A stretch of 44,727 nt of DNA from an uncultured Candidatus Saccharibacteria bacterium (GTDB lineage: Bacteria > Patescibacteriota > Minisyncoccia > Phycocordibacterales > Phycocordibacteraceae). The first letter of the stretch is position 1; each line of letters starts with the position of its first letter. This document shows, piece by piece, positions 1-25,642 of this stretch. The notes below the pieces were generated by a model. It was given only the letters and a program-made list of their open reading frames with translations, made no database searches and had not been told where the DNA came from. The DNA is taken from NCBI GenBank assembly GCA_964590505.1, contig CAZPVV010000001.1, positions 1-44,727 of the forward strand, read 5' to 3'. The position numbers and the translations under genes were made by a program.

Positions 1-6
1 AGTGTA

Positions 7-948
7 GTGGAGAAGTACGTTGCAATAATGAATGCAGCAGAGAGGGCAGCAGAGATGGTAAAAGCAAAGCCATCCTTAAGTGAAGAGGTTGAGCATAATA
101 CGAGGGAGAGAGCCGCGAACTTTTTAGTTCGCTTTGCTGAAGGAGTTGACGACGACCTCGGGACTTTGAAAGAGAAGCTAAGTAAAGTTGAAGCAGACAC
201 CGAATTGCTTGTAGCAACAACTCGCACACTTTTTCAGCAAGGTGAAGCAATAGACCTTGTTGAAGGAGTTCGCGTCTCAACGCAAAGTTCAGCTGAATTA
301 GCAGAAGACCCACGAGATATAAAAAGAATAGAATCGCTTCTCATCAGAACTTATAAAGATAAGACAAAGGAATTTCAGGATAGTGTAATTGAATCCTTTC
401 GGAATGCGACGAGCACGCATGAGAGTAAGTTTTATGTCTTGCGTTATAAGGAAGAAATAGCTGCTTTGCTTCGCTTTGATCAGCATCAGGCCGGTGAGAA
501 ATATTTTGGCTCCTTTGTGTCTGACCCAGCCTTTGAGAATGGAAAAGTGGGAGAGGCGTTAATGATCAATGCGATGTCGACCGAGGCTAGAGACTCAATT
601 ATCCTGGCACACTGCAACCCACTCTCTCCTATAACGCAGAAATACATTGAGACAGGATTTGTTGCGACAAAACTAGAGGATTACGCTGGCGTACCCAGCT
701 TCTCCATTAGACTGGATGCAAAAGCAAATACGCAAAGTGAAACAAAATCATGGAAGCCTGAGCGTATTGTGCAGGCAGCGCTTTCGCAAAATAACCCAAA
801 CATACAAGCCTTTAGTGTAAAAAGACCAGAAGAGATTCCTTTTAATTTAGTAAATCAAGGATTTTCGCTCACCCGTTACCTTAAACAGGGAGAACGACTC
901 TACGCTGTGTTTGAACGACTTTCATCTGAAGAGAAGGGTTCTGCGTAG
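7..948 (+). CDS. hypothetical protein; the frame stays open to the window edge, so the 5' end may be missing
   Basis: 313-codon ORF in the track. I recognise no family motif. The 3' end overlaps the convergent gene by 49 nt. Confidence 0.5.
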   Translation: MEKYVAIMNAAERAAEMVKAKPSLSEEVEHNTRERAANFLVRFAEGVDDDLGTLKEKLSKVEADTELLVATTRTLFQQGEAIDLVEGVRVSTQSSAELAEDPRDIKRIESLLIRTYKDKTKEFQDSVIESFRNATSTHESKFYVLRYKEEIAALLRFDQHQAGEKYFGSFVSDPAFENGKVGEALMINAMSTEARDSIILAHCNPLSPITQKYIETGFVATKLEDYAGVPSFSIRLDAKANTQSETKSWKPERIVQAALSQNNPNIQAFSVKRPEEIPFNLVNQGFSLTRYLKQGERLYAVFERLSSEEKGSA

Positions 949-1700
949 TTCCATAAGACATCGAATATTGATCGGTGCGCATTTGTAATGTGTGTATCGT
1001 GGACAATCATTGCTACTGGTTCGGCACAATCAACAACTATGTAGCTGGTTTTTCCGTCATACATCTGGATGATGGTTTTTGAGGGGGCATCTGCGTACTT
1101 TATGAGACGAGAGTCTGTAACCGAGGTGTCGTATGCACTCAACATACTGCGTGTGAAGGGGGTATCCGCCAGAATGCCCTTTTTCTGAATGCCCTTCCGC
1201 TTTCGTTTCTCTAGGTACTCAGTATTGAGATCGCGGTACGATTCATCGATGGCCTTGAGGTCTGCAAAGGTATAAATGACCTCCTTTGCCGAAAGAGTAT
1301 CATTTAGAACCTTTGCGATACCTCCCATCCCTTCAAAGAACTCAATTCCAGGCTTTCCTCCGGCAATGTTATAGGCAGAAGAGAGAGGTCCAAGCGCACC
1401 TTCAAGAGCTGACAGCGCATCTTTTGCTTCGTTTTGCTTTCGTTCAATGATTTCCTTGAGTTTAAGAGGATGCGCCGCAACAAACTCTGCAACTTTGCCT
1501 GCTTCTTCTCGTTTCTCAACAAGGCCCAGCCCAGAAAGCTCGCCCAGCACCTTATACGAGAGCGTTCTAGACACTGCTCCTCTGCGGGCTATGTCACTTG
1601 CACTTGAAGGTCCACTACGAACGAGTGCTTCATAAAGTCGTGCTTGCTCACCACTAAGCCCTGCCTGGATAAGGTGTTGTTCAAAAGAAGATGTGTCCAT
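900..1700 (-). CDS. TrmB-family winged-helix transcriptional regulator
   Basis: The N-terminal LYEALVRSGPSSASDIARRGAVSRTLSYKVLGELSGLGLVEK is a typical TrmB/MarR-like wHTH. The 266-aa length fits TrmB N plus C domains. Confidence 0.75.
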   Translation of the reverse strand: MDTSSFEQHLIQAGLSGEQARLYEALVRSGPSSASDIARRGAVSRTLSYKVLGELSGLGLVEKREEAGKVAEFVAAHPLKLKEIIERKQNEAKDALSALEGALGPLSSAYNIAGGKPGIEFFEGMGGIAKVLNDTLSAKEVIYTFADLKAIDESYRDLNTEYLEKRKRKGIQKKGILADTPFTRSMLSAYDTSVTDSRLIKYADAPSKTIIQMYDGKTSYIVVDCAEPVAMIVHDTHITNAHRSIFDVLWNYAEPFSSDESRSNTA

Positions 1701-1710
1701 AAATTATATT

Positions 1711-1730
1711 TTGTCATAGAATCGTGACAA
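1711..1730. promoter_or_regulatory. perfect inverted repeat TTGTCA-N8-TGACAA just upstream of the TrmB-like start; candidate auto-operator
   Basis: Read directly as ttgtca tagaatcg tgacaa. It sits next to a minus-strand TATAAT box (1703-1708). Confidence 0.4.
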
Positions 1731-1809
1731 AAACAACCTTAAAACCGTGGATTGTCTGTAAATAAAGGCTATTTATGAGACACATCATCGCAATTTATGT
1801 TCCAACACA

Positions 1810-1838
1810 TTGACAGAAGGTGAATACTGGGCTATGCT
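1810..1838 (+). promoter_or_regulatory. sigma70-type promoter TTGACA-17 nt-TATGCT facing the GC-rich island
   Basis: TTGACA at 1810-1815, a 17-nt spacer, TATGCT at 1833-1838. It has the same architecture as other promoters readable in this window. Confidence 0.55.
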
Positions 1839-1844
1839 ATTGGA

Positions 1845-2287
1845 AGTTAGATGGTCATTCAAGGAGGTGTTCAGAAATGTGCTCCCCACCCTCTAGTCCT
1901 GAAAGGGAAGGTACTCGAACCTCTCGCAAGAGCTAAGTCGAGAAAGAGGAGAGAGTGGGGATGAGAAGCGCATTTCTTCACATCTATTTGCCAGAAAGGC
2001 AGTGCGTAGAAGGAAGGTCCGCAAATACCGTCCTTTCTAGGTACTTGGGGCTTATGCCCGACAACCCCTTTCGCCCGTTTTCCTTGTGAGGAGATCGGCT
2101 GGTCACAAAGGACTAACCTCCCTTTGCGACTAGAAATGTCCTCACAACAGAAGAGGAGTCATTTGATAACTGAATAGAAGGGAACCATGAGCGAAGGAGA
2201 GAGCGCTCGTGGTTCCTCCCATGCACCTTTTTGGGTGTGGGGGAGGGATCACCGCTGTGGTGGTTCTGTTAATAGAAGGAGAAGGTT
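1845..2287 (+). promoter_or_regulatory. structured leader RNA of about 440 nt containing three micro-ORFs (19, 42 and 34 codons)
   Basis: No ORF of 60 aa or more before 2209. A long-range helix pairs 1874-1894 with 1950-1976. A 13-bp stem pairs 2181-2193 with 2204-2216. There is a C(GCAA)G loop at 1925-1928. The micro-ORFs are 1877-1936 (SD AAGGAGG), 1961-2089 and 2187-2291. Confidence 0.45.
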
Positions 2288-3350
2288 ATGAACCTTCTAG
2301 TGATCGATGCCCGCTCGCGGGATCTGCGTTGCTGGATGGCCTCGGCCACCCAGTGTTTCCAGACCCGGGCGGTCTGGAAGGCCGAAGCACCATTGGTGCT
2401 TCGGTATGCGGCAGAAATCGGTTCTTTGCACCAACTGGTGCAAAGAACCGATGAGGGGGTGCAAGCCCTCTTCCCAGGACCAGTCTTGGTCCTGGGATCC
2501 TACCAGGCGGTAGGATCTGCTGGGTTCACGGAGACCTCCGTGAACCCGCACCTCCACGGGCTGACACCCGTGGAGGTGTACGGCATCCTTAGCCCCGCTG
2601 CTGCGGGTCTAGTCCGCTTTGGGGAGCCCATAACAGGGGTTCTTCTCAGTGGATTAGTCAAGGCCCGGCTTCTGCCGGGCCAACAAAGCAGCAACTGCCA
2701 GACGGCAGCTGCTGCGCGGGCGGCAGGCCGGCTTCTGCCGAGCCTTCTTCCTGTGGTCACTCTGGCAGAAGGCCAGAGTGACCGGGTCAGAGTATGGAAA
2801 CTCGAGGGGACCGAATGTCTCTTTGAGTTTCCAGAAGAACATCAGCCGGGCTTTGGTCCGGCTGACATCCTCCGCCGTTGGCTGGAGGACGCTGTCGTAC
2901 CCTACGGGGCACGACATGACGCCGGCGGCTACGGCCACGCGGCGCTCATTCTACGGAAGGCGCTTCGTCGCCTTCCGTGGGAGGTTCAAAGAGAGGCACT
3001 CGCCTCTCTTTTCAAGAACTTTCCTACCGAAAGGTGGGAAGAGGTCCATTTCGACGAGGTGGATGAATATTATTCCGCCTGCGACAGGCGGGGGATCTGG
3101 TTCATCGAGCCAGATCCAGAGGATCCCTGTGGGGTCCTCGTCGAGTCCCTTCGCGACGCGGAGGGAAACAGGAGACAGATCCGGCTTCGGCCGAATCTGT
3201 CTCCTGAGACGGAGGGTCTCTTCGTGGAGACCCTCCGTCAGGTTCTCATTGAGTATAAGGAGAACGGTTATGTGAAGTAGGTTGGTTTCCCGAGCGCACG
3301 GTTACGCGCTCGGGACTCCTATTTAGCTCACGACAATGGTGTCGTGAGCT
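2281..3350 (+). other. array of about 28 consecutive, non-repetitive stem-loops (stems 5-16 bp, loops 3-10 nt)
   Basis: Arms read directly. Examples: 2417-2432/2437-2452 (16 bp perfect), 3208-3220/3227-3239 (13 bp), 2549-2560/2567-2578 (12 bp), 2755-2766/2772-2783 (12 bp), 2522-2532/2537-2547 (11 bp). The fuller list is in the findings. Confidence 0.8.
2288..3280 (+). CDS. hypothetical 330-aa protein; coding status uncertain because the whole ORF coincides with the hairpin array
   Basis: SD GAAGGAGAAGG lies 3-4 nt upstream of the ATG. The ORF is long for this GC content. The C-terminal two thirds look protein-like. No motif recognised. Confidence 0.45.
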   Translation: MNLLVIDARSRDLRCWMASATQCFQTRAVWKAEAPLVLRYAAEIGSLHQLVQRTDEGVQALFPGPVLVLGSYQAVGSAGFTETSVNPHLHGLTPVEVYGILSPAAAGLVRFGEPITGVLLSGLVKARLLPGQQSSNCQTAAAARAAGRLLPSLLPVVTLAEGQSDRVRVWKLEGTECLFEFPEEHQPGFGPADILRRWLEDAVVPYGARHDAGGYGHAALILRKALRRLPWEVQREALASLFKNFPTERWEEVHFDEVDEYYSACDRRGIWFIEPDPEDPCGVLVESLRDAEGNRRQIRLRPNLSPETEGLFVETLRQVLIEYKENGYVK

Positions 3351-3366
3351 AACAGGGGGTTCTATC

Positions 3367-3738
3367 ATGGACATCGTTCTGAACCAGGGAGGAGAGGTTG
3401 CGGGTGCCTCCTCCTGGACGACGGGCTTCAAAGCCTACACCCGTTGCCGACCCGCTTTCTTCAGCGAGGAGCAAGTGCTCGCGCACGCGCTCAAACTGGA
3501 GGAAGAATGGGGGAGCAGGCACGCGCTCGCTTGGCTCGAACGGTGGTTCGACCGGCAGCGGTGCCTTGGGCAAGGACCCCGTTCTTGCCCACTCCAATGG
3601 GCTCGCGACAAACGTCGTGGGCCCATAGAGTTCTTACGCACTTCCTGTGTTTGCACATCCCTGCATCACTCTGACGGAGAAGAAATCTCTCTCCTCGGCC
3701 GTCATGCTGGTGCACGGGTTTGCGAACATAGGAGGTAA
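3367..3738 (+). CDS. hypothetical 123-aa protein
   Basis: SD-like AGGGGG lies 8 nt upstream. The stop is 2 nt before the next start. Several overlapping alternative frames in this GC-rich stretch make the call tentative. Confidence 0.4.
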   Translation: MDIVLNQGGEVAGASSWTTGFKAYTRCRPAFFSEEQVLAHALKLEEEWGSRHALAWLERWFDRQRCLGQGPRSCPLQWARDKRRGPIEFLRTSCVCTSLHHSDGEEISLLGRHAGARVCEHRR

Positions 3739-3740
3739 CA

Positions 3741-3923
3741 ATGTCGCAAAAGGTCTTCTGCCTGCTCACCATGGCCGTCGTTCTGCTGCTCTTCGCAACG
3801 TTCATGGCTTACGCGAGCTACCACGACTTCGGGAAGCTCGTCCCCCAGGCCATCTTCACCGTCGGCGCATTCGTCGTTGGTGCGGTGGCCGCCGTGGGGT
3901 TCATCTTCGTGAAGGAGGAATAA
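3741..3923 (+). CDS. small membrane protein, 60 aa, two predicted TM helices
   Basis: SD TAGGAGG lies 6 nt upstream. There are two hydrophobic segments (LLTMAVVLLLFATFMAYA and FTVGAFVVGAVAAVGFIF). A terminator follows. Confidence 0.6.
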   Translation: MSQKVFCLLTMAVVLLLFATFMAYASYHDFGKLVPQAIFTVGAFVVGAVAAVGFIFVKEE

Positions 3924-3935
3924 TCATGAAGAAGA

Positions 3936-3966
3936 ACAAAAACGCCCGCTTCGGTGGGCGTTTTTC
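3936..3966. terminator. bidirectional intrinsic terminator with a C(UUCG)G-capped stem
   Basis: aaaaacgcccgc ttcg gtgggcgttttt, flanked by an A-run and a T-run. It serves the island operon and the convergent gene that ends at 3985. Confidence 0.7.
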
Positions 3967-3984
3967 TATATTCAGATACCAAAC

Positions 3985-4788
3985 TCAATTCTCAACCCCA
4001 TACTCCCTATAGAAATCCTCTATCGGCGCAGACGCACGAAGCGGAAGCATGAGCGGTTCGGTCATGATGCTCGTGAGTGGTGCATCAGGCGGAAGAGTCT
4101 TTAAGCGTTCTGTAAGAACAGACGCTAGTTCTTTATTTAGTGTTCCGTCACTAGTGAGGAACTGACCCCAGAGCATGGTTCCTTTCTGCCAGGACTCTTC
4201 TTCTGTATTAGGTACAAGATGGTCTGTAAAACTAGCAGGGTAGAGTGCGCGGTACTCCTTACGGTTATATAGCCATGAGTTACCCGTCATAGTCGTCACA
4301 TCTGGGTGCTCAGCTTTCAGTGTGCGAACAGCATCAGCAATCTCAGAACGTCGTTGTAGAACCTTATCACTTTGTAGGGGGCCAGTTGGTCCATACTCTG
4401 CATTCACAAAATGCATCTGCGCCACTTTGGTATCAGGATCAAAGGTACAACTAGAACACCCAAAACGGTGTCCTTCTTGATAGGGAATAAGATCGGTGCG
4501 GGTCTCTTTCAAATACTTCTCATACGCAATCTCAAGAAAGTTATCTCTCGTTAAGTCAGGATGCTTTACATACGTGTCTTGCGCACGATCAAATCGGTGT
4601 ATGTTCTGGTGGATCATTGGTGCATAACTCTCGGACGCCATAACGAGTGACGTTTGGTTTCGCTCGGCCATCACCTCCGCAACGCTCAGCTGAAACGCAA
4701 AGAAGTCTTTCTCAATAGGAATCTCTTCTCGTGGTGTCCACCCCTCTTTAGAAAGAGCTTCAGCAGGTTTTGTGGGCATTCTCTCCAT
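3985..4788 (-). CDS. hypothetical protein, 267 aa
   Basis: Clean ORF. A TATACT box lies 8 nt upstream of the ATG on the minus strand, which looks leaderless. No family recognised. Confidence 0.6.
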   Translation of the reverse strand: MERMPTKPAEALSKEGWTPREEIPIEKDFFAFQLSVAEVMAERNQTSLVMASESYAPMIHQNIHRFDRAQDTYVKHPDLTRDNFLEIAYEKYLKETRTDLIPYQEGHRFGCSSCTFDPDTKVAQMHFVNAEYGPTGPLQSDKVLQRRSEIADAVRTLKAEHPDVTTMTGNSWLYNRKEYRALYPASFTDHLVPNTEEESWQKGTMLWGQFLTSDGTLNKELASVLTERLKTLPPDAPLTSIMTEPLMLPLRASAPIEDFYREYGVEN

Positions 4789-4804
4789 TGCCCCTCAGTA
4801 TAAA

Positions 4805-4840
4805 GCAAAAGCGCCCCCTATGTTGGAGGGCGCTTTTGCA
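4805..4840 (-). terminator. intrinsic terminator downstream of hup
   Basis: GC stem gcgccc/gggcgc, followed on the minus strand by a T-run. Confidence 0.5.
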
Positions 4841-4856
4841 AAAGAAACGTAAACGA

Positions 4857-5129
4857 CTACTTCACTGCGTCCTTAAGTGCCTTTGCAGCACGGAACTTAG
4901 GAGTACGTGTTGCGGCAATCTTGATGGTCTCTCCAGTGCGAGGGTTGCGACCAGTGCGAGCTGGGCGAGCCTTTGCGCTAAAGATACCAAGTCCTGCGAT
5001 GGAAACTTCGTCACCTGACTTAAGTCCACCAGTAATGCAGTCAATGATGGTCTCAACTGCGCGATCTGCATCAGCGCGTGTGCCACCGAGCACATCCTGC
5101 ACCTTTGCTACGATATCTGCTTTGTTCAT
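4857..5129 (-). CDS. hup: HU-family DNA-binding protein
   Basis: 90 aa. MNKADIV..., the GLGIFSAKARPARTGRNPRTGETIKI arm, and the PKFRAAKALKDAV tail are canonical HU. Confidence 0.9.
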   Translation of the reverse strand: MNKADIVAKVQDVLGGTRADADRAVETIIDCITGGLKSGDEVSIAGLGIFSAKARPARTGRNPRTGETIKIAATRTPKFRAAKALKDAVK

Positions 5130-5177
5130 GAGGGAGCGTTTAGGGTTAAGAACACCCTGCGTGAGGGTATGTTAAAA

Positions 5178-5205
5178 AGTATAGGAAATGCGCCATATTA
5201 TGCAA
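5178..5205 (-). promoter_or_regulatory. hup promoter TTGCAT-16 nt-TATACT (minus strand)
   Basis: Read on the reverse complement; it lies about 50 nt upstream of the hup ATG. Confidence 0.5.
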
Positions 5206-5239
5206 TAGGGTAGGAAATGGGTGGGGATAGCCCATATTT

Positions 5240-5268
5240 TTGACAAAATATTCTCAAAGTGTTATATT
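5240..5268 (+). promoter_or_regulatory. orphan plus-strand promoter TTGACA-17 nt-TATATT
   Basis: Near-consensus boxes, with both neighbouring genes on the opposite strand. Confidence 0.5.
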
Positions 5269-5274
5269 TTGTTC

Positions 5275-5393
5275 AGCACTGAAAACACAGTAGCCGTCCC
5301 GCAAGGGATCTGAGCTTAACATCCACGTGAAGTTCTACTTTTTTACTCTTTCAAATTAAAGAAAACCCGCGCACTCTAGCGCGGGTTTTCTTT
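5275..5393 (+). ncRNA. candidate small RNA of about 115 nt (promoter to terminator, no ORF)
   Basis: The interval is bounded by the 5240 promoter and the 5366-5385 terminator stem plus T-run. It contains a CCC(GCAA)GGG hairpin at 5298-5307. No start codon with an SD. Confidence 0.35.
5361..5393. terminator. bidirectional intrinsic terminator
   Basis: aaaacccgcgc actcta gcgcgggtttt, with T-runs on both strands. It lies downstream of rny on the minus strand. Confidence 0.75.
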
Positions 5394-5404
5394 ATCTCCT
5401 TAAT

Positions 5405-6913
5405 CTAGCGAGCAAACTCAACAACTCTGTTCTCGCGGATGATATTTACCTTGATTTCTCCAGGATACTTCAGTTCCTCCTGCACGCGGATAGCTATATC
5501 TTTAGCCATTTTGTGCATCGCAAGGTCGGTAACTTTGCCCGGATTCACAAAGATTCTAATCTCGCGTCCAGCCGAAATGGCGAAGCTCTTCTCTACACCA
5601 GGGAAGGACGCGGCAATGCGCTCAAGATCACCCAAACGCTCAAGATACCGCTCCACCGTATCGCGACGAGCACCGGGGCGCCCTGCAGATATTGCGTCCG
5701 CCACCTGAACGATCATTGACTCCGGTGTTTCATACGGATACTCCTCATGGTGCGACTGCATGGCCTGAGTAATACGCGGATCAACGCCGTATTTCTCTAG
5801 AATGCGGCGACCAATCTCAACGTGCGTACCCTGAACGTCGTGGTCAACGGCCTTGCCGATGTCGTGAAGGAGTGCGCCGGCGCGTGCAATGTCTGGGTCG
5901 GCTCCGAGTTCCTCTGCAAGCATGCCTGCGATGTGTGCCATCTCAATAGAATGCTGAAGTACGTTCTGTCCGTAGCTGGTACGGAAGTACAGGCGTCCAA
6001 GAAGAGACACCAAGCGCGGATCAAGTCCCACCACACCAACTTCGTATGCAGCTTCCTCACCCTTTTGCTTCATCATGTCGGTGACTTCTTGTTTGGTCTT
6101 CTCAACCGTCTCTTCAATCTTCGCTGGCTGAATGCGTCCGTCCTCAATCAACTTCTCAAGCGCCATCTTGGCGATGTGTCGTCGTAGTGGATCAAAGGAA
6201 GAGAGGGTAATACGATCAGGTGCGTCATCAATGATGACGTCTACACCAGTCGCGCGCTCAAAGGTCTTGATGTTGCGTCCTTCTTTGCCGATGATCTTTC
6301 CCTTAATCTCCTCAGAAGGAATAGAAACAGAAAGTGTCATCACATCAGCGTTTACGGGAGACGCCATGCGATGAATGACGGAAAGCAAAATAGAGCGTGC
6401 TTTTCCTTCAAGCTGTTTCTTGCCGTGTGCATCAAGTTTTTGTGCACGCGTCAAAAGGGCGTTCTCGTACGCTTTCTCCAAATCTTTCATAAGAAGCGCA
6501 CGACCTTCTTCTTCCGTCATATGCGCAAGTTGTGAAAGTTCTTGTCTGCGTTCACGAAGCAGGTTCTCTGCTTCTTTGCGCATGTTGCCCGCTTCAGTCT
6601 CTCGCGCTTTCACATCGTCAGCCTCTTCGCTGATGTTGCGTTCACGCTCATCAAGAAACGCTTCGCGCTTGGCGAGTCGCTCTTCTCGCTCACGAAGTGG
6701 ATCAAGGCGTTCCTCTTCAATCTCTTCAGCTTCAGCCCGAGCATTCTCCACAATTTGGTCTGCCCGCTCCTTTGCTTCAAGAAGTTTGCGCTTCACCTCA
6801 AGCTCCAAAGACCCTCTCTGACCAAGTGCGATGAGCAAACGAAGCACGTAGCCGAGTGCAATTCCCGCCATACCACTTGCTGCAAGCAGTATGAGTACTA
6901 GTTTTATAGACAT
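5405..6913 (-). CDS. rny: ribonuclease Y
   Basis: N-terminal TM, coiled coil, KH domain (GKEGRNIK) and HD domain (LLHDIGK). I trimmed the track ORF start (6979) to the Met that precedes the TM helix. Confidence 0.9.
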   Translation of the reverse strand: MSIKLVLILLAASGMAGIALGYVLRLLIALGQRGSLELEVKRKLLEAKERADQIVENARAEAEEIEEERLDPLREREERLAKREAFLDERERNISEEADDVKARETEAGNMRKEAENLLRERRQELSQLAHMTEEEGRALLMKDLEKAYENALLTRAQKLDAHGKKQLEGKARSILLSVIHRMASPVNADVMTLSVSIPSEEIKGKIIGKEGRNIKTFERATGVDVIIDDAPDRITLSSFDPLRRHIAKMALEKLIEDGRIQPAKIEETVEKTKQEVTDMMKQKGEEAAYEVGVVGLDPRLVSLLGRLYFRTSYGQNVLQHSIEMAHIAGMLAEELGADPDIARAGALLHDIGKAVDHDVQGTHVEIGRRILEKYGVDPRITQAMQSHHEEYPYETPESMIVQVADAISAGRPGARRDTVERYLERLGDLERIAASFPGVEKSFAISAGREIRIFVNPGKVTDLAMHKMAKDIAIRVQEELKYPGEIKVNIIRENRVVEFAR

Positions 6914-7027
6914 ACACGTTTCAAGCCGTCTCTGGGCATTCGTGTCCAGAGCGGAAAATAAATTCAAATAAAGACCCAAACTCCTGAGTCAAAATCGTAC
7001 CTTAGTAGAGGTGGGGAGTAAATGAAC

Positions 7028-7058
7028 GAAAAACCGCCCCTAGTGCGGGGCGGTTTTT
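7028..7058 (-). terminator. intrinsic terminator downstream of clpP
   Basis: aaaaaccgcccc tagtg cggggcggttttt. Confidence 0.7.
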
Positions 7059-7670
7059 CTACTTTGACTTGTATACCTGGTCGATGAGTCCGTACTTCTT
7101 TGCCTCTTCGGCAGTCATAAAGAAGTCGCGGTCAACATCCTTTTCAACCTTGGCAAGAGTTTGCCCTGAGGCTTTTGCGAGGATGCGGTTCAAACGGTCT
7201 CGCGTTGCAAGAATGTGGCGTGCGGTGATTTCAATGTCCGCAGCCTGACCCTGCACACCACCCCATGGCTGGTGGATCATGACTTCAGCGTTTGGAAGTG
7301 CGAAGCGCTTTCCTTTGGCGCCTGACGCAAGAATGACTGAGCCCATGGATGCCGCCATTCCCACACACACGGTGGCCACCTGTGGCTTCACGTGGTTCAT
7401 GGTGTCTACAATGGCAAGTCCCGCAGAGACCGAACCTCCAGGGCTGTTCACGTAGAGGAAGATGTCCTTCTTTGGGTCCTCTGCCTCAAGAAACAGAAGC
7501 TGAGCAACCACCAAGTTTGCGGTGTCGTCGTCAACGCCCCCAGAAAGGAACACAATACGCTCACGCAGAAGACGGGAATAAATGTCATATGCACGCTCAC
7601 CAAACTGTGACTTTTCAATCACCATAGGAACGAGCATGCTTGATTCGGGGAATTTATTTGGGTGTGCCAT
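7059..7670 (-). CDS. clpP: ATP-dependent Clp protease proteolytic subunit
   Basis: The GMAASMGS (catalytic Ser) and MIHQPWGG motifs, at 203 aa. Confidence 0.95.
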
Positions 7671-7713
7671 AGTCTGCCTATAGTATCAAAACGAGCGCAT
7701 CCGCCAACTGTGG

Positions 7714-7914
7714 CTAGTATCGCTGACTTTCTATCTGTTCCTGGAGAAGTCGCTCCTCATTAATACGCTCACCCCACGCATAGAGTGCTCCGGTCACAAT
7801 CATGCCGAGCATAACTATAATCACCACAATCGTGCCCCAGGATGCGTTTCGTGCTGCGGCGTCCTGCACTTGTTGAACGCGCTCTGCGTGTTCGGGGAGA
7901 AGTATCGGTTCCAT
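7714..7914 (-). CDS. small single-TM membrane protein (66 aa)
   Basis: I trimmed the track ORF (to 7992) because its 5' part runs through the ppa terminator hairpin. A TATACT box lies 6 nt upstream of this ATG. Confidence 0.4.
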   Translation of the reverse strand: MEPILLPEHAERVQQVQDAAARNASWGTIVVIIVMLGMIVTGALYAWGERINEERLLQEQIESQRY

Positions 7915-7956
7915 AGGGAAAGTATAACGCAGACGGATGTGTTCCACACCAAAAGT

Positions 7957-7981
7957 AAAAGGCCCCATGGTGGGGCCTTTT
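7957..7981 (-). terminator. intrinsic terminator downstream of ppa
   Basis: aaaaggcccca tgg tggggcctttt. Confidence 0.7.
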
Positions 7982-7995
7982 ACGTGGAGCACAAA

Positions 7996-8514
7996 CTACT
8001 TCTTTTCTTGATAGAGCGCTACGGCGCGAGTGAATGCAGCTTCTGCCGCATCCCGGCCTTCAAACTCTCCAACCGTCACTTCCTTCTTTTGGATCTGCTT
8101 GTAGGTTGCGAAGAAGTGGGAAATCTCCTTGAGAACGTGTGGGTTTACGTCTCCCATGTCCTTCACCTCCGCAAAGCGAGGATCATCAACAGGAACGGCA
8201 ATGACTTTCTCATCAGCCTCACCCCCATCAATCATGTGCATGATGGCGACGGGACGAGCGCGCACGAGAATACCTGGCTGAAGAGGGTAGGTGGTAAGGA
8301 GCACTACATCAAGGGCGTCTCCGTCGTCCCACAGAGTCTGTGGAACAAACCCGTAATCAAACGGATAATCTTGAGCTGAGTGCATCACACGGTCAAGAGC
8401 GATGATGCCCGTCTCCTTATCAATCTCGTACTTATTCTTGGAGCCTTTGTTGATTTCAACAATAACGTTCATTTCGTCCTTCGTTCCAGGAGCGATATCG
8501 TGTAGCAAGTTCAT
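7996..8514 (-). CDS. ppa: inorganic pyrophosphatase (family I)
   Basis: YPFDYGFVPQT and DGDALDVV motifs, at 172 aa. Confidence 0.95.
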   Translation of the reverse strand: MNLLHDIAPGTKDEMNVIVEINKGSKNKYEIDKETGIIALDRVMHSAQDYPFDYGFVPQTLWDDGDALDVVLLTTYPLQPGILVRARPVAIMHMIDGGEADEKVIAVPVDDPRFAEVKDMGDVNPHVLKEISHFFATYKQIQKKEVTVGEFEGRDAAEAAFTRAVALYQEKK

Positions 8515-8526
8515 ACGGGAATTGTA

Positions 8527-9930
8527 CTACGCGGTGTCACGAGCCTCCTCGTTTTCTGCAACAGGACCATCCTCACCAAGCGTGGTTTCGTCTTCAACGG
8601 TAAGGGTGTTGTCGGTCTCTCCCTCCTCGGTCGTGATAACGGAGTCGGTTTCACCCTCATCAAGTCCAATCTCCTTTGCAGGATCATTCTCAAGGGCTTC
8701 CTCAGCTTCTTCAAGAGCGATCTCCTCTTCAGAGATACGTACTTCGCCTGGTTTAGGAACTGCGGTAACAGAAACCTCGTCACCATTGCTCTCAGCAACA
8801 GCCTCACCTCCCACTGACTTGATATCAATGTTCCAGCCGGTAAGTTTTGCAGCAAGACGTACGTTCTGACCACCGCGTCCAATCGCAAGAGACTGCTGAT
8901 CTTCAGACACCGTTACGAGTGCACGGTGCTCAGCTTCATCGAGCTCTACCTCAAGCACGGTTGCAGGAGAAAGCGCTTCCTTGATGAATGCAGACTGGTC
9001 TTCAGACCACTCAATGATGTCAATGCGCTCGCCACCAAGTGCCCCCATAACGGTAGACACGCGCACACCACGCTGGCCAACGAGTGAACCAACTGGATCA
9101 ACATGTGGATCGGTTGAAGCAATTGCAATCTTGGTGCGACTTCCAGGCTCGCGGGCAAGACCCTTCACCTCAATAGCGCCACTTGCAAGTTCGGGAGCCT
9201 CCATTTCAAACAGCTTCACGAGGAAACGTGGATGACTGCGTGAAAGACGCAGGTATACTCCGCGGAACCCTTCATCAACGGCGTAGAGATACGCCTGAAT
9301 GCGCTCGCCATTGCGGTATCGCTCTCCAGGAATCTGCTCCTCGTACGGAATGATGCCGGTAGCACGTCCAAGATCAATGAAGATTGCACCACGCTCAACG
9401 CGCTGTACGAGACCTGAAACAATTTCTCCCTTCTTGTGTCCAAACTCTTCCAAGATAGAAAGCTTCTCAGCTTCGCGAATCTTTTGGATCACCACTTGCT
9501 TTGCCGTTTGTGCGGCAATGCGACCGAAGTCGTCCTGTGGCTCAAGAGGGAAGACGATTTCTCCAGAGAGTTCTGCGTCACGCTTGATGCGCTTGGCGTC
9601 CTCTATAAGGATGTGCTTCTCCGAATCAAAGCGAGGGAGTTCGCCCTCAGGCACCTCCTCGTGCTCGTGATGTGGGTGTGGCTCAGGGATTTCCTCATCA
9701 GGTTCAGGAAAACGAACCATTGAGTCGTCCACAATAGTCTTCACCTGCTCAAAGGTCATGGTGCCTGTATTCATATCAAGCTTCGCGTGCACGATTTGTC
9801 CACGCTTTCCATACTCCTTCTTATATGCGGTGGCCATAGCAGACTCAATAGCCTCTATCATGGTCGCCTTTGAAATACCGCGCTCCTCAAACTCTCCGAG
9901 CACTAGATTGATTGTTTTTAGATCCAACAT
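8527..9930 (-). CDS. nusA: transcription termination/antitermination factor NusA with an acidic C-terminal tail
   Basis: N-terminal domain, S1 domain, two KH domains (GRGGQNVRLAAKLTGW), then a Glu/Asp-rich tail. Confidence 0.9.
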   Translation of the reverse strand: MLDLKTINLVLGEFEERGISKATMIEAIESAMATAYKKEYGKRGQIVHAKLDMNTGTMTFEQVKTIVDDSMVRFPEPDEEIPEPHPHHEHEEVPEGELPRFDSEKHILIEDAKRIKRDAELSGEIVFPLEPQDDFGRIAAQTAKQVVIQKIREAEKLSILEEFGHKKGEIVSGLVQRVERGAIFIDLGRATGIIPYEEQIPGERYRNGERIQAYLYAVDEGFRGVYLRLSRSHPRFLVKLFEMEAPELASGAIEVKGLAREPGSRTKIAIASTDPHVDPVGSLVGQRGVRVSTVMGALGGERIDIIEWSEDQSAFIKEALSPATVLEVELDEAEHRALVTVSEDQQSLAIGRGGQNVRLAAKLTGWNIDIKSVGGEAVAESNGDEVSVTAVPKPGEVRISEEEIALEEAEEALENDPAKEIGLDEGETDSVITTEEGETDNTLTVEDETTLGEDGPVAENEEARDTA

Positions 9931-10081: not shown

Positions 10082-10119
10082 CGAATGAAAGGCATGCTCT
10101 GCGTTATACTTGAGAAAGC

Positions 10120-11871
10120 ATGCAAGTTTCAGAGAGGGAACTAAAAGAATTCATTATTGATTCCGGTCTTGTTGCCCGGAAGGATGTTGATGCTGCAGAA
10201 GCAACCGGCAAGGAGCGGAACCAGTCGGTGGGTGACATTCTCGTGTCACAAGGCTCTCTCTCCGAAGACGCACTCCGCCGCATTAAGGCATACGTGCTCG
10301 GTATCCCGTTCGTTAACCTCAAAGACAAGAAGATACCGTTTGAGATTCTCTCCCTCATCCCGGAGCCAATCGCCCGCACGCACAACATCATTGCTTTCAA
10401 GAAGGATGGCGGCTCGCTTGAGGTAGCGATGCTTGATACGGAGGATATGCCGTCCATTGACTCCATGAAGAAGAAGACGGGACTTAAGATTCTTCCTCGC
10501 TTGACCGACGACGAGTCCATCAAGCACGTATTGCTCCAGTACCAGAAGTCACTCAAAGAAGAGTTTGGTGACCTGATTGCGGGGGAAGCAGGCAAGCTCG
10601 CACTTGTGAAAGAGATTGCAGGAGACGATGCGTCTCAAGAGGACCTGAAGAAAATGGCAGAGGATCTGCCGATTGTACGCATTGTAGACACGCTTCTGCG
10701 TCACGCTATTTTGCAGGACGCGTCTGATATTCATATTGAGCCTGCAGAGCACGAAGTTATCGTGCGCTATCGCATTGACGGTATCCTGCACGACGCCATG
10801 ACGCTTCCGAAGAATGCGAGTGCTGGTATTACGGCGCGCATCAAAGTGCTTGCAAACCTCAAGCTTGATGAGAAGCGTCTTCCACAAGACGGCCGATTCA
10901 AGATGGAGACCGAACGCGACAAAGTGTCGTTCCGTGTGTCACTCCTTCCGGTCTACTACGGAGAGAAAGTGGTTATGCGTCTGCTTCGCGAAACAGGGGA
11001 GGGCTTCACCCTTGAAGTACTTGGTTTTCATGGAGAGAATCTTGAGCGTATTCATCACGCAACCAAACAAACAACGGGAATTATTTTGGTATCGGGCCCT
11101 ACCGGTTCTGGAAAGACGACCACGCTCTATACGATCCTGGATATTCTGAATACGCCTGACGTAAACATTTCAACGATTGAAGACCCGATTGAGTATCAGA
11201 TGAAGCGCGTGAACCAGACACAAGTGAATCCAACAATAGGATTCACGTTTGCAAACGGTCTTCGTGCACTTCTGCGTCAGGACCCCAACATCATCATGGT
11301 GGGGGAGATTCGCGATAGCGAGACTGCGGCGCTCGCGATTAACGCGGCACTCACCGGACACATTGTGCTCTCAACTATTCACACCAACTCAGCAACGGGC
11401 GCTATTCCCCGTCTTATTGATATGGGTGTGGAGCCATTTCTCTTGGTGTCTACGCTTCGGGCTGTGGTGGGTCAACGACTGGTTCGTCGTTTGTGTGAAG
11501 ACAAGGAGCAATACGGCTTAGACAAAGTTGAACGCAACAAAGTGGCTCCGGACGAGCACTTTATGGCCGCACTTGGCGCCCTTACCGAGGAGAAACTGGT
11601 GAAGGCGGGAACCAAAGTAGACGCACTTCCTTTTTATAGACCAAAGGCGGGAGGTGATTGTGAGGAAGGATACAAAGGACGTATGGGTATACACGAAGTA
11701 CTTACGGTCTCTCCTGCAATTCGTGAACTTATTCTCCATGGCGCTTCGGGCGATCAGATAGAAGCACAAGCACGCAAAGAAGGCATGCTCACGATGCTTG
11801 AGGACGGAATCTATAAAGCATCCCGTGGCATTACGTCACTTGAAGAAGTGTTACGTTCAGTCTCGGAGTAA
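10120..11871 (+). CDS. pilB: type IV pilus assembly ATPase (GspE/PilB family)
   Basis: T2SSE N-terminal domain, Walker A GPTGSGKTTT, and a tetracysteine-region remnant, at 583 aa. Confidence 0.9.
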   Translation: MQVSERELKEFIIDSGLVARKDVDAAEATGKERNQSVGDILVSQGSLSEDALRRIKAYVLGIPFVNLKDKKIPFEILSLIPEPIARTHNIIAFKKDGGSLEVAMLDTEDMPSIDSMKKKTGLKILPRLTDDESIKHVLLQYQKSLKEEFGDLIAGEAGKLALVKEIAGDDASQEDLKKMAEDLPIVRIVDTLLRHAILQDASDIHIEPAEHEVIVRYRIDGILHDAMTLPKNASAGITARIKVLANLKLDEKRLPQDGRFKMETERDKVSFRVSLLPVYYGEKVVMRLLRETGEGFTLEVLGFHGENLERIHHATKQTTGIILVSGPTGSGKTTTLYTILDILNTPDVNISTIEDPIEYQMKRVNQTQVNPTIGFTFANGLRALLRQDPNIIMVGEIRDSETAALAINAALTGHIVLSTIHTNSATGAIPRLIDMGVEPFLLVSTLRAVVGQRLVRRLCEDKEQYGLDKVERNKVAPDEHFMAALGALTEEKLVKAGTKVDALPFYRPKAGGDCEEGYKGRMGIHEVLTVSPAIRELILHGASGDQIEAQARKEGMLTMLEDGIYKASRGITSLEEVLRSVSE

Positions 11872-13109: not shown

Positions 13110-13135
13110 GGAGTCGTGCGTTATCATACGAAGTA

Positions 13136-17350: not shown

Positions 17351-17381
17351 ACGGGCGGCCCTCAAAAGGGTCGCCCGTTTC
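17351..17381 (+). terminator. intrinsic terminator (11-bp stem with one G-U)
   Basis: acgggcggccc tcaaaa gggtcgcccgt, then tttcg. Confidence 0.65.
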
Positions 17382-17399
17382 GCGTGCTATCCTTTTTTT

Positions 17400-19692: not shown

Positions 19693-19738
19693 AGCTACAG
19701 CATACTCTACCTACTGACTCTGATACAATCCTCACACT

Positions 19739-25622: not shown

Positions 25623-25642
25623 GGGGGTAGTATATAACCATA
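25623..25642. promoter_or_regulatory. 20-bp divergent intergenic region with one palindromic TATATA box shared by both flanking genes
   Basis: gggggtagTATATAaccata. The box is 6 nt from the + strand ATG and 8 nt from the - strand ATG. Confidence 0.45.

Follow-up and report, generated by a model that had tools for sequence, protein, structure and literature searches.

A TrmB-linked operon of Patescibacteria with a predicted near-continuous chain of hairpins over its reading frames

Is a GC-rich block in a Patescibacteria/CPR genome a foreign insertion, a structured RNA or a protein-coding operon, and what keeps its composition apart from that of its neighbors? Positions 1810-3966 of the window, the whole 44,727-nt stretch of DNA analyzed here, which comes from an ultra-small (Paceibacterota/CPR) bacterium, raise this question. 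A first-pass annotation had described them as a self-contained island. In our reading they form one transcription unit with a consensus-like promoter, a 440-nt leader, three ORFs and a terminator (Table 1), the transcript ends being taken from consensus matches only.

Layout of the transcription unit and its genes

Most of the proposed layout was recovered. The promoter scored 10/12, the bidirectional terminator claimed at 3936-3966 was found as a slightly shorter hairpin, and the coordinates and lengths of the three ORFs (330, 123 and 60 aa), the spacing between the ORF2 stop (3736-3738) and the ORF3 ATG, and the two hairpins separating ORF1 from ORF2 were all reproduced. The composition needed correction. 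The mean GC contents of 1845-3966, 2288-3923 and the remaining window were 57.5%, 59.7% and 50.4%, respectively, with a peak of 62% in 400-nt windows; the 65-72% reported before holds for single lines of sequence but not as a regional mean. The increase does not start at the promoter, as had been supposed, but downstream of it, at approximately 2000-2200. An AGGAG-type motif was present in 2 of the 34 large ORFs in the window, one of them ORF1, and the contrast drawn earlier between strong SD use here and the core genes thus holds. In many core genes of the window, a -10-like box lies immediately upstream of the ATG.

Table 1. Features of the operon and of the adjoining regulator gene (positions in the window; ".", no strand assigned)
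Feature	Position	Strand	Basis or remark
TrmB-like HTH regulator gene, 266 aa, divergent from the operon	900..1700	-	PF01978
Palindrome TTTTGTCA-N8-TGACAAAA, operator-like, over the trmB promoter	1709..1732	.	Inverted repeat
Sigma-70-type promoter TTGACA-17-TATGCT	1810..1838	+	Score 10/12; putative transcription
Structured 5' leader, ~440 nt	1845..2287	+	Folding z -2.4 to -5.3; no Rfam match, no conserved ORF
ORF1 SD AAGGAG, 6 nt upstream of ATG	2276..2281	+	Sequence reading
ORF1, 330 aa, unnamed CPR protein family	2288..3280	+	Homologues, AF2 model, 11 perfect hairpins
ORF1 N-domain, conserved, codons 1-190	2288..2857	+	C-terminal remainder strain-variable
Intercistronic hairpin pair, 3288-3315 and 3323-3352	3288..3352	+	Perfect stems, 10 and 13 bp
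ORF2, 123 codons, doubtful gene; structured RNA, product ~70 aa at most	3367..3738	+	
ORF3 SD AGGAGG, within the final ORF2 codons	3730..3735	+	Sequence reading
ORF3, 60 aa, real gene for a small membrane protein with two hydrophobic segments	3741..3923	+	Purifying selection
Bidirectional intrinsic terminator, hairpin with A-run, GC stem and T-run	3938..3965	.	Common to convergent 267-aa gene

Judged by its homologues and its predicted structure, ORF1 is a real gene. No named family had been recognized for any of the three products, and none was found: ORF1-3 had no Pfam, NCBIfam, PADLOC or meaningful PHROG match, tblastn of phage and plasmid collections gave no match, and the viral-contig scan was empty. 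However, ORF1 belongs to an unnamed family of at least 186 clusters at 50% identity with conserved motifs. Structure prediction, which had been proposed for the products, gave a beta-rich N-domain of approximately 190 aa with an AF2 pLDDT of 92.5, and the model had no fold match in PDB or BFVD. The conserved polar residues of this domain are D7, R11, R39, Y72, S77, N136, E161, Q163, S164, E184 and H185. The C-terminal part cannot be aligned in the close relative L013 and differs between near-identical strains. An SD was present in 9 of the 9 family genes inspected. Family genes frequently occur on short contigs, and one of them (L006) is alone on a 1794-nt circular or tandem unit.

Of the three coupled ORFs proposed, ORF1 and ORF3 are supported as genes. 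Relatives of ORF2 were near-identical copies only. In L013 three 1-nt indels disrupt its frame beyond approximately codon 70, one of these indels making the hairpin 3567-3591 perfect, and the first 70 codons show 11 synonymous and 13 non-synonymous changes. Because of these indels and of a start region that is predicted to be base-paired, we believe that ORF2 is doubtful as a full-length gene. Compared with L013, ORF3 has 0 indels and 23 synonymous and 12 non-synonymous codon changes; codon position 3 takes 27 of the 44 substitutions, and GC3 is 0.85. No ORF3 homologue was seen at the other loci examined. By this substitution pattern, ORF3 is a real gene for a 2-TM peptide under purifying selection, and the small membrane protein proposed before is retained. 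The two intercistronic hairpins are 100% identical in L013 despite diverged flanking sequence, and the terminator hairpin is also conserved there.

Folding of the operon RNA

The first-pass annotation missed what we consider the main point, a near-continuous chain of hairpins across the unit with 11 perfect stems inside ORF1. The operon RNA is predicted to form approximately 57 local hairpins that cover almost the whole unit and are laid over the reading frames; 29 of the 57 hairpin loops are tetraloops, and 71% of the bases are paired. When a perfect hairpin is defined by a stem of at least 9 and a loop of at most 10, the 44.7-kb window has 31, of which 14 lie within 2357-3965 (13 in 2357-3352 plus the terminator). 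The stems inside ORF1 are 9-17 bp long and both arms are translated, that is, they are coding palindromes, perfect inverted repeats in a translated ORF. Apart from two similar hairpins of 17 nt (2665 and 2728), the direct-repeat search returned chance matches only. A Rickettsia-type palindromic or REP-like repeat family was rejected because the hairpins are unrelated in sequence.

Randomized controls showed that the folding is far stronger than expected. In sliding windows compared with dinucleotide shuffles, z ranged from -2 to -12.6 along 1876-3900 and was approximately 0 in the flanks. In synonymous-codon shuffles, the native MFE of the ORF1 mRNA was -586 vs -376 kcal/mol, 56% more stable (z -17.2), so its energy lies well below randomized controls along the coding region, as in GORS. 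By the same method, the z values of ORF2, rny and the other host genes, including TrmB and the 267-aa gene, were -7.9, -4.6 and -2.3 to +1.9, respectively, and 14 of 14 family genes tested were over-structured (z -3.4 to -17.2). The GC3 of family genes was 0.61-0.87 vs 0.34-0.59 in the adjoining trmB genes. MFE values of -0.52 to -0.59 kcal/mol per nt were obtained. Selected hairpins explain the GC excess better than foreign origin does, since all homologous loci show it and the trmB gene beside it stays host-like in composition.

Helices are also conserved. In one subclade of 5 genes, 35 local helices are shared, with compensatory changes; 83% of cells were paired vs 36-45% in slid controls, and 54 pairs had changed on both sides vs 12-23 in slid and 28.7 in shuffled controls (0/500). 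The folding energies of the plus and minus strands were -1164.6 and -1050.8 kcal/mol, respectively, with 74 G-U pairs on the plus strand vs 39 on the minus strand, and plus-strand substitutions led to G-U in 40 cases vs A-C in 23. This wobble-pair asymmetry favors the sense RNA, and part of the advantage could come from G+T skew.

The base pairs in ORF1 show a codon-phase bias. The predicted accessibility of the ORF1 start window ranks at the 96th percentile of the transcript, and 3737-3757, at the ORF3 start, is predicted to be the most accessible 21-nt stretch of all. The right arms of the hairpins tend toward poorly conserved residues, copying a conserved left arm, and among the imperfect, G-U-containing helices of the island arm complementarity ranges from 73% to 94%. 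The structured tract runs from promoter to terminator in the window and matches the transcription unit at other loci too, where the leaders are 0.1-2.3 kb long, structured and mutually unalignable. Hairpin positions are only partly conserved in distant homologues, a drift that is easier to reconcile with selection on foldedness as such than with selection on one defined architecture. Selection appears to act on the dense RNA structure as well as on the protein code, which is unusual in a bacterial gene. That many stems of 9-17 bp are perfect in WC pairing is not needed for selection on RNA and hints at a DNA-level generator, for example, template switching.

The TrmB-linked cassette and its relatives

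The island had been described as a self-contained insertion bounded at 1845. This boundary does not hold, because in 7 loci the TrmB-like neighbor forms part of one conserved cassette with the operon. Its HTH domain matches PF01978 with E 6e-11 and 42.5 bits (Pfam cut-off 25.6), and the gene itself is host-like, with a GC3 of 0.43 and no excess structure (z +0.4 in synonymous shuffles). The family gene is divergent from a TrmB-like gene in 7 loci of several CPR lineages; orthologues occupy the same divergent position in L001, L003, L005, L011, L012 and L021, and no adjacent TrmB gene was found in L004 and L020. The operator-like palindrome, a clear one, sits on the trmB promoter approximately 80 bp from the operon promoter and overlaps a promoter-like site of the minus strand (1730-1703). 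In 5 of 6 loci, TGTCA-N8/9-TGACA is found at the corresponding location, and TTGACA-17-TAnnnT sites point toward the family gene in L003, L005, L011 and L012. Comparison of the neighborhoods, as had been suggested, found the TrmB divergence kept in 7 loci; the other associated genes vary from locus to locus.

An accessory character of the block is supported in so far as L022, in which hup and the 267-aa gene are 92% identical to those of the window, lacks it at this position, carrying HigB and ImmA/IrrE-like genes there instead. Homology ends at window position 3991, just outside the terminator, and the break covers everything left of it rather than the island alone. No other part of L022 has a match in the window, which means that the two do not have the left flank in common, and the break may reflect either a rearrangement or a larger variable block. 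Misassembly was rejected for the right side, which three independent assemblies reproduced at 100% identity over 2222-4586. In L004 the family gene lies in a 9-kb GC-rich, over-structured phage-like block that also encodes a DEAH/HA2 helicase, a VWA protein and a PHROG-family protein; as the hyper-structure spreads over this whole region, the property may be one of a mobile-element lineage and not of the operon itself. The same helicase adjoins the family gene in L007, an AAA_33/Zeta-like kinase does so in L012, and PIN toxins lie near it in L018, L020 and L021.

Searches against known classes agreed with the earlier statement that integrase, transposase, flanking direct repeats and tRNA are missing. 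Pfam, NCBIfam and PHROG profiles gave no match, and hence no integrase, transposase or relaxase, for ORF1-3 or the flanking 267-aa ORF, ARAGORN found 0 tRNA/tmRNA genes in the window, and the direct repeats were short and chance-like, none of them flanking the block. PADLOC-DB v2 gave no match for ORF1-3 and the 267-aa ORF. Rfam gave 0 matches at gathering thresholds in the whole window and 0 in 8 related loci; at E up to 10 over 1700-4100, it returned only terminator look-alikes and chance miRNA matches far below threshold. Two classes of RNA genome were considered and rejected. The locus is chromosomal DNA between trmB and hup with no replicase, viral protein or fold match, unlike an RNA virus genome, and the window copy is linear in the chromosome with local hairpins rather than a rod, unlike an Obelisk or viroid-like RNA.

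Explanations and known counterparts

The explanation that we favor, with confidence about evenly divided between acceptance and doubt, is that the operon is part of a TrmB-linked CPR cassette whose sense transcript is selected to fold into hairpins. What was first supposed, an uncharacterized module that has a promoter and a terminator to itself and centers on RNA structure, is supported. The unit at 1810-3966 would be a single transcription unit of a cassette that is patchily present in Patescibacteria/CPR genomes and that comprises the TrmB-like regulator with its palindromic operator, divergent from an operon with conserved ORF1, here followed by ORF3. The GC-rich island would then be the compositional footprint of RNA structure. 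The transcript would have been selected for near-continuous short stable hairpins over the reading frames, leaving open only the ribosome-binding windows of ORF1 and ORF3, which carry strong SDs in a genome that hardly uses SD. With approximately 70% of bases paired and few single-stranded A/U-rich stretches, such an RNA should be a poor substrate for single-strand-specific endoribonucleases, either housekeeping enzymes, for example, RNase Y, or a conflict-related RNase, and the message would therefore be long-lived. SD-anchored ribosomes would have to unwind the hairpins, and TrmB may gate transcription of the operon. Our best guess is that the operon yields a nuclease-resistant, SD-dependent message of an accessory cassette. 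Within this explanation and with the same divided confidence, the ORF1 product would be a cytoplasmic protein whose N-domain has no known fold and whose C-terminal part changes fast. Variation of the C-terminus and of the accessory ORFs, and a close relative that lacks the block at this site, suggest that its role lies in conflict or is accessory and is not a housekeeping one.

We consider it unlikely that the block is an accessory or defense-type module that moves horizontally, its GC, SD and hairpins being inherited from a GC-rich, hairpin-rich CPR mobile element or phage lineage. In such a case, the TrmB cassette would derive from that element by transfer or domestication, and ORF1, its enzymatic N-domain conserved and its sensor-like C-domain variable, would form a conflict system with the 2-TM peptide. 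The missing block and the HigB and ImmA/IrrE-like genes in L022, the ORF1 C-terminus swapped between near-identical strains, the over-structured block of L004 with a helicase shared with L007, the kinase of L012, the nearby PIN toxins, the frequent short contigs and an SD use foreign to this genome all agree with it. However, integrase, transposase, tRNA and flanking direct repeats are missing, ORF1-3 match nothing in PADLOC/PHROG, phage and plasmid collections or viral contigs, and a host-like trmB next to an operon that is GC-rich in every lineage argues for maintained selection over recent import; a difference in composition alone cannot yield z -17 against synonymous shuffles. It is very unlikely, in our opinion, that the family gene and its hairpin-packed RNA are the core of a semi-autonomous, RNA-centered CPR element, in which the N-domain protein packages, copies or mobilizes its own transcript, L006 is the free form and the TrmB-linked copies are integrated or domesticated. 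The structure would there serve an RNA replicon through nuclease evasion, compaction and blocking of duplex formation with the complement. An artefact, either a chimeric assembly or a non-coding GC-rich stretch with ORF1 as a chance frame, is almost certainly the wrong answer: high GC does yield long chance ORFs on both strands, such as a 385-aa antisense ORF in L003, but the identical sequence in three other assemblies, the size of the family with its conserved motifs, the confident AF2 model and the codon-phase bias of the pairs speak against it.

The structure itself could also be read in two other ways. We consider it quite unlikely that the RNA is the functional product, that is, that it serves as a scaffold, is packaged or exported, or is a template bound or acted on by the ORF1 protein, in a ribonucleoprotein whose mRNA is at the same time structural RNA. 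The low MFE per nt, covarying helices, structure that continues through the leader, the intercistronic region and the doubtful ORF2, intercistronic hairpins conserved amid diverging neighbors and an L013 indel that perfects a hairpin while breaking the ORF2 frame are consistent with this, and the conserved polar residues of the N-domain are as expected of a nucleic-acid enzyme or binder; the empty Rfam searches, the unalignable leaders and the drifting hairpin positions are not. The RNA folding would be a by-product if template switching, quasi-palindrome correction, hairpin-directed conversion or a like mutational process made the palindromes and preserved their perfection at a highly transcribed or fragile locus, or if the palindromes acted as DNA cruciforms or ssDNA hairpins. 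Thirteen perfect WC stems in approximately 1 kb, of a perfection that RNA function does not need, right arms that copy conserved left arms into poorly conserved residues, and the fast evolution of the gene point this way. Yet the tract is bounded by promoter and terminator and tracks the transcription unit elsewhere, G-U pairs and the direction of substitution favor the sense strand, the start sites are kept open, and the process would have to be specific to one gene family across many lineages. We regard a DNA-level origin as distinctly improbable.

If the explanation that we favor is true, RNA (or ssDNA) folding constrains the sequence of a bacterial protein-coding operon no less than the encoded protein does, and the folding effect is conserved across a whole gene family in several CPR lineages. 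It makes testable how far codon degeneracy can serve as a second, structural code, and what a fully folded message gains in stability, nuclease evasion or controlled translation. The family is moderately large, has a confident fold without a PDB or BFVD relative and is tied to a dedicated regulator, and the biology of the CPR organisms that bear it is largely unknown. GC-rich islands in such genomes should be checked for dual coding before they are called horizontal transfer or non-coding RNA.

Pervasive local structure through coding sequence occurs in the GORS of positive-strand RNA viruses and in the folded genomes of ssRNA phages. Similarly, the operon is predicted to fold far more stably than sequence-order controls and to display its start sites in loops, and its order of a larger protein, a small ORF and a small membrane protein loosely resembles that of maturation, coat and lysis genes. 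In contrast, it lies in chromosomal DNA, has a promoter and a terminator, and lacks a replicase and any BFVD, PHROG or phage match. The typical GORS excess is several-fold below the approximately 56% of the operon.

The closest parallel within genes is found in hairworm mitochondria, where coding palindromes with stems up to 284 bp occur across the whole organelle genome and their perfection is the argument for an active conversion mechanism (PMC6649704). Like them, the operon has perfect inverted repeats in functional coding genes with both arms translated, no sequence family, positions gained and lost among relatives and a codon-phase bias that exploits degeneracy; unlike them, its stems are 9-17 bp, confined to one bacterial operon and gene family, and the region is GC-enriched. 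Perfect repeats only, the signature of Nematomorpha-type active conversion, were not what we found, since there are many imperfect G-U helices, with 74 G-U pairs and covariation. The G-U-tolerant covarying helices and the sense-strand bias, which set the operon apart from the hairworm palindromes, point to selection at the RNA level. As far as they are described through citation in PMC6649704, the Rickettsia palindromic elements are selfish palindromes inserted in frame in genes, copies of one repeat family that decay over time. Hairpin-forming sequence is tolerated within ORFs in both cases, but the operon hairpins are unrelated in sequence and both arms lie over family-conserved residues, in contrast to the elements as cited there.

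The operon resembles the GOLLD, ROOL, OLE, HEARO and raiA RNAs in being GC-rich, strongly folded, surrounded by a lower-GC genome and equipped with a promoter and a terminator of its own; unlike these, its RNA is probably translated, and it is a simple string of hairpins rather than a conserved multi-junction architecture. The known targets of TrmB are genes of sugar transport and metabolism. The regulator described here resembles known TrmB systems in its PF01978 domain, in the palindromic operator-like site in a common intergenic region and in the divergence kept in 7 loci, and differs from them in that its divergent candidate target is an unnamed protein family. Against PADLOC-DB v2, the TrmB-like protein showed weak HTH similarity to CasR/Csa3, with E 8e-4 or worse.

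Layout of the unit and its hairpin chain

The promoter, the ORFs, the two intercistronic hairpins and the terminator of the first-pass annotation were confirmed on the window sequence, and their coordinates are listed in the table. The GC content was 57.5% over 1845-3966 and 59.7% over 2288-3923, with a peak of 62% in a 400-nt window, compared with 50.4% in the other 42.6 kb. The GC values of 65-72% claimed earlier hold for single sequence lines but not for the island as a whole, and the rise in GC, although real, begins near 2000-2200 and not at the promoter. The absence of tRNA genes from the window was borne out. The three products, for which no recognised family had been claimed, had no match in Pfam, NCBIfam or PADLOC, and PHROG gave a marginal match for ORF3 only.

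Features of the unit, with examples of stretches that contain -10-like boxes of core genes in the window
Feature	Position	Strand	Remark
Promoter, consensus-like TTGACA-17-TATGCT	1810-1838	+	consensus match
Leader	between promoter and ORF1		440 nt
ORF1	2288-3280	+	330 codons
Hairpin between ORF1 and ORF2	3288-3315
Hairpin between ORF1 and ORF2	3323-3352
ORF2	3367-3738	+	123 codons
ORF3	3741-3923	+	60 codons; AGGAGG within final ORF2 codons
Intrinsic terminator, bidirectional	3938-3965		stem
Core-gene -10-like box	10100-10122
Core-gene -10-like box	13116-13138
Core-gene -10-like box	17380-17402
Core-gene -10-like box	19719-19741
Core-gene -10-like box	24894-25645

What had been missed is a chain of hairpins laid over the reading frames. 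With a stem of at least 9 and a loop of at most 10, the 44.7-kb window holds 31 perfect hairpins, and 14 of them lie within 2357-3965. ORF1 alone accounts for eleven of these, frequently back to back, and their stems reach 17 bp. Folding z scores against dinucleotide shuffles (150-nt windows) ranged from -2 to -12.6 over 1876-3900 and were about 0 in the flanking genes, namely the divergent TrmB-like regulator gene (trmB) and the convergent 267-aa gene. In its predicted fold, the 2122-nt unit forms 57 hairpin loops (29 tetraloops), with 71% of its bases paired. A REP/RPE-type repeat family was ruled out because the island hairpins are not copies of each other. The sole sign of sequence-related hairpins is a near-identical small pair inside ORF1, CCGGCTTCTGCCGGGCC (2665-2681) and CCGGCTTCTGCCGAGCC (2728-2744), 63 nt apart. 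In the window, an 8-bp hairpin presents the ORF1 ATG in its loop, but the other loci do not conserve this arrangement, so a hairpin conserved at this start codon was also rejected.

The ORF1 protein family and the status of ORF2 and ORF3

ORF1 is a member of a genuine protein family that lacks both a name and a fold match. A database search returned four distant homologues (30-35% identity), which share with ORF1 the N-terminal motifs VIDARSR, PxLVxGxYQAxSSxG, NSNxxTAxA, EGQSD and EEH. When 1.84 billion representatives were searched with a profile, at least 186 clusters were found (169 at E <=1e-10), all with an N-domain of about 190 aa and with C-terminal parts unlike each other; the profile search of a word-indexed database yielded only 4 proteins. 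The larger family alignments contain no conserved stretch of 7-10 residues. The AlphaFold2 model of the ORF1 N-domain (pLDDT 92.5, pTM 0.89) consists mainly of beta strands and one long helix. A known family or fold was rejected: 120 family members had no Pfam domain, NCBIfam, PADLOC and PHROGs were negative, no PDB sequence matched the family profile, and Foldseek with the full-length protein and the N-domain found nothing in PDB (best E 0.2-0.7, TM <0.22) or BFVD. Toprim (EGxxD), RuvC/RNase H-like (D7 on strand 1), serine recombinase (ARS motif) and double-psi barrel folds, all considered as candidates, had no fold match and were unsupported, and S10 is not conserved in the wider family. The near-invariant polar residues D7, R11, R39, Y72, S77, N136, E161, Q163, S164, E184 and H185 look like a candidate active or binding site. 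Its distant homologues, its confident structural model and the codon phases preferred by its base pairs mark ORF1 as a genuine gene, and a large non-coding RNA with a spurious ORF1 was ruled out. Very often the family genes lie on short contigs of 1-5 kb (L002, L006-L008, L010, L013-L019), which would fit strain heterogeneity, or poor assembly of the surrounding GC-rich palindromic DNA.

The other two ORFs were compared with L013, a 1048-bp contig from a close relative. L013 matches the window at about 97% identity across the 267-aa gene, and both intercistronic hairpins are unchanged (100% identity). ORF3 had no indels; 23 codon changes were synonymous and 12 non-synonymous, and of the 44 substitutions, 27 fell at third positions. 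It is a real gene, encoding a small protein with two hydrophobic segments. The ORF2 frame is broken in L013 after about codon 70 by three 1-nt insertions, one of which makes the imperfect hairpin 3567-3591 perfect. The first 70 codons showed 11 synonymous and 13 non-synonymous changes, and the database search found no ORF2 homologues beyond near-identical copies. Therefore, ORF2 was treated as a probable structured RNA, with a short product at most. The three coupled ORFs described earlier are thus cut to two supported genes, ORF1 and ORF3. Neither ORF2 nor ORF3 had homologues in the other loci at E 1e-4. A conserved leader RNA or leader peptide was ruled out, as the leaders are not alignable between loci; TTCAAGGAG is common to the leaders of the window and of L005, a Saccharibacteria locus, and is not in the other loci.

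Selection on structure and the start sites

The native ORF1 had a folding energy of -586 kcal/mol, compared with -376 ± 12 kcal/mol in synonymous-codon shuffles, which leave both protein and codon usage unchanged (z -17.2). In the same test, the z scores of ORF2, ORF3, trmB and the 267-aa gene were -7.9, -2.7, +0.4 and +0.2, respectively. All 14 family genes whose DNA was retrieved, including those from Berkelbacteria, Parcubacteria and Saccharibacteria MAGs, were over-structured (z -3.4 to -17.2); host genes of the family loci gave -2.3 to +1.9, and rny of the window gave -4.6. GC3 was 0.61-0.87 in the eight family genes measured and 0.34-0.59 in the adjoining trmB genes. These results indicate that pervasive selected local structure and raised GC track the gene family and its transcription unit.

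The hairpins overlie conserved residues, typically with a conserved motif as one arm and a variable stretch grown complementary as the other. By codon phase, the base pairs were divided 41%, 35% and 24%, favouring the phases that use third positions, as expected if hairpins were fitted onto a translated frame. Hairpin positions drift among distant homologues but coincide within a subclade. In a subclade of five genes (46-69% protein identity), 83% of the cells of 35 local helices were paired, compared with 36-45% for slid partners, and 54 pairs had changed on both sides, compared with 12-23 for slid partners and 28.7 ± 3.6 in shuffles (0 of 500 reached 54), with the structure derived from the same alignment of only five sequences on which it was tested. 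These sequence comparisons indicate that the structure is selected and is more than a matter of composition.

Strong SD sequences had been reported for the unit and not for core genes, and the distinction proved stronger than stated, since an AGGAG-type motif is present in only 2 of the 34 large window ORFs, ORF1 among them. Most core genes lack an SD, and many of them have a -10-like TAnnnT box 6-10 nt before the start codon, as in leaderless mRNAs, which suggests that leaderless or SD-independent initiation is widespread in this genome. The unit thus has SD-led open start sites in a genome that seldom uses SD. The most accessible 21-mer of the predicted transcript is 3737-3757, at the start of ORF3; the predicted accessibility of the start sites of ORF1 and ORF2 was at the 96th and only the 67th percentile, respectively.

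Recurrence, variability and interpretation of the cassette

In seven loci (the window, L001, L003, L005, L011, L012 and L021), a divergent TrmB-like gene precedes the family gene, and the TrmB proteins of these loci are 24-46% identical in full-length alignments. In 5 of 6 loci, the trmB promoter carries a palindrome, TGTCA-N8/9-TGACA, and in 5 loci a strong promoter-like site, TTGACA-17-TAnnnT, faces the family gene. Between loci, neither the leaders (0.1-2.3 kb) nor the ORFs surrounding the family gene are conserved; the long leader of L012 includes a GIY-YIG ORF (1613-1909, minus strand). These findings show that several CPR lineages possess a TrmB-linked cassette of this kind. The organism of the window is itself most likely one of the CPR/Patescibacteria, as its HU protein clusters with proteins labelled Candidatus Paceibacterota. 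Upstream of trmB, an ORF (window 7-948, weak GNAT-like matches) is homologous to the C-terminus of a 1049-aa protein at the equivalent position in L005 (1184-4333; 28% identity, E 7e-40), so the conserved block may be three genes long in some lineages.

The locus varies at strain level. The 3' third of ORF1 (window 3060-3287 versus L013 1-246) is unalignable, whereas the flanking DNA is 97-100% identical, which suggests that the C-terminal part is replaced in a cassette-like way or evolves very fast. In L022 (JAHZTO010014112.1), a relative whose hup and 267-aa gene are 92% identical to those of the window, homology ends at window 3991, precisely where the 267-aa gene ends, and nothing else matches the window. 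In place of the island, L022 1235-10240 carries a 176-aa ORF, HTH_3/Peptidase_M78 (ImmA/IrrE-like), a HigB-like toxin, DUF2188 and others. These unrelated genes mark the site as a variable-gene hotspot, and together with the divergence of the ORF1 C-terminus, the break indicates that the block is variable between relatives. The island is lacking at this site in L022, but the variable segment is larger than 1845-3966 and also takes in trmB and everything to its left.

We consider it about an even chance that the operon is a structured, selected, TrmB-linked cassette in which the hairpin chain would shield the message from single-strand-specific RNases and make translation depend on SD anchoring, TrmB would gate expression, and the role would be accessory or conflict-type. 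The descriptive side of this reading stands on far firmer ground than the functional side. The only analogue found in the literature search was the coding palindromes of hairworm mitochondria (PMC6649704). The island is likewise dual-coded, but its helices are imperfect and covarying, so it falls outside that class; it shares dual coding with GORS too, but is not an RNA virus and is no member of that class. The searches brought up no described family, RNA class, defence system or fold to which the operon would belong.

We regard it as unlikely that the operon is instead a defence-like module, or a fragment from a mobile-element lineage rich in GC and hairpins. L004 (JALVSO010000027.1, Parcubacteria) has no trmB, and its family gene ends a 9-kb block (1-9000) of 50-70% GC versus 34-45% in adjacent host DNA, over-structured throughout (folding z down to -10). 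Its large genes, all on one strand, encode a VWA protein, a phrog_23674 protein, a 247-aa membrane protein, a 1050-aa DEAH/HA2 helicase (synonymous-shuffle z -15.2), a 279-aa protein and the family protein, and the block looks like a phage- or element-derived region of hairpin-rich style. The family gene of L007 adjoins the same helicase, and downstream of the family gene in L012 is an AAA_33/Zeta-toxin-like kinase gene (4836-5633), itself strongly over-structured (synonymous-shuffle z -11.5). The first and last 96 nt of L006 1-1890 (VAPK010886548.1) are identical, as for a circular path at k=97, which implies a 1794-nt circular or tandem unit. Apart from the family gene (104-1449), this unit contains just a terminator-like hairpin (1490-1516) and an AT-rich spacer; a T-arm-like motif in the spacer, GGTTCGACTCCGG, is not a tRNA or tmRNA by ARAGORN and Rfam. 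Among the short family contigs, only L006 has such a terminal overlap. A phage or plasmid origin was rejected, as tblastn against phage and plasmid collections and an IMG/VR scan were negative.

Improbable, in our view, is a dual role in which the transcript is itself a product, as a bifunctional RNA or an RNP; the treatment of ORF2 as RNA would suit it. Rfam matched no RNA family in the island at gathering or permissive thresholds, nor in the related loci. We give slightly less credence still to palindromes that arise by a process in the DNA alone and have no function as RNA. A generating step in the DNA, such as the template switching discussed for the hairworm palindromes (PMC6649704), nevertheless accounts better for the many perfect Watson-Crick stems. 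The plus strand of the unit folds at -1164.6 kcal/mol with 74 G-U pairs and the minus strand at -1050.8 kcal/mol with 39; stem substitutions between the window and L013 went to plus-strand wobble in 40 cases and to minus-strand wobble in 23; and the structured tract coincides with the transcription unit in the window and other loci. Strand energies, wobble bias, tract extent and open ribosome-binding windows thus favour a sense-RNA structure. A mutational source in DNA and retention at the RNA level are compatible, and the two explanations can be combined. An artefact is hardly credible: window 2222-4586 was recovered at 100% identity in three independent public assemblies, so the right-hand junction did not arise in assembly.

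Outside the unit, a candidate small RNA without an Rfam match is located between hup and rny (5240-5398, plus strand). A promoter-like site, TTGACA...TATATT, is followed there by a strongly folded stretch of about 127 nt (MFE -45.2, z -7.6; window z -8.3), with a 16-bp terminator hairpin (5357-5394) at its end.
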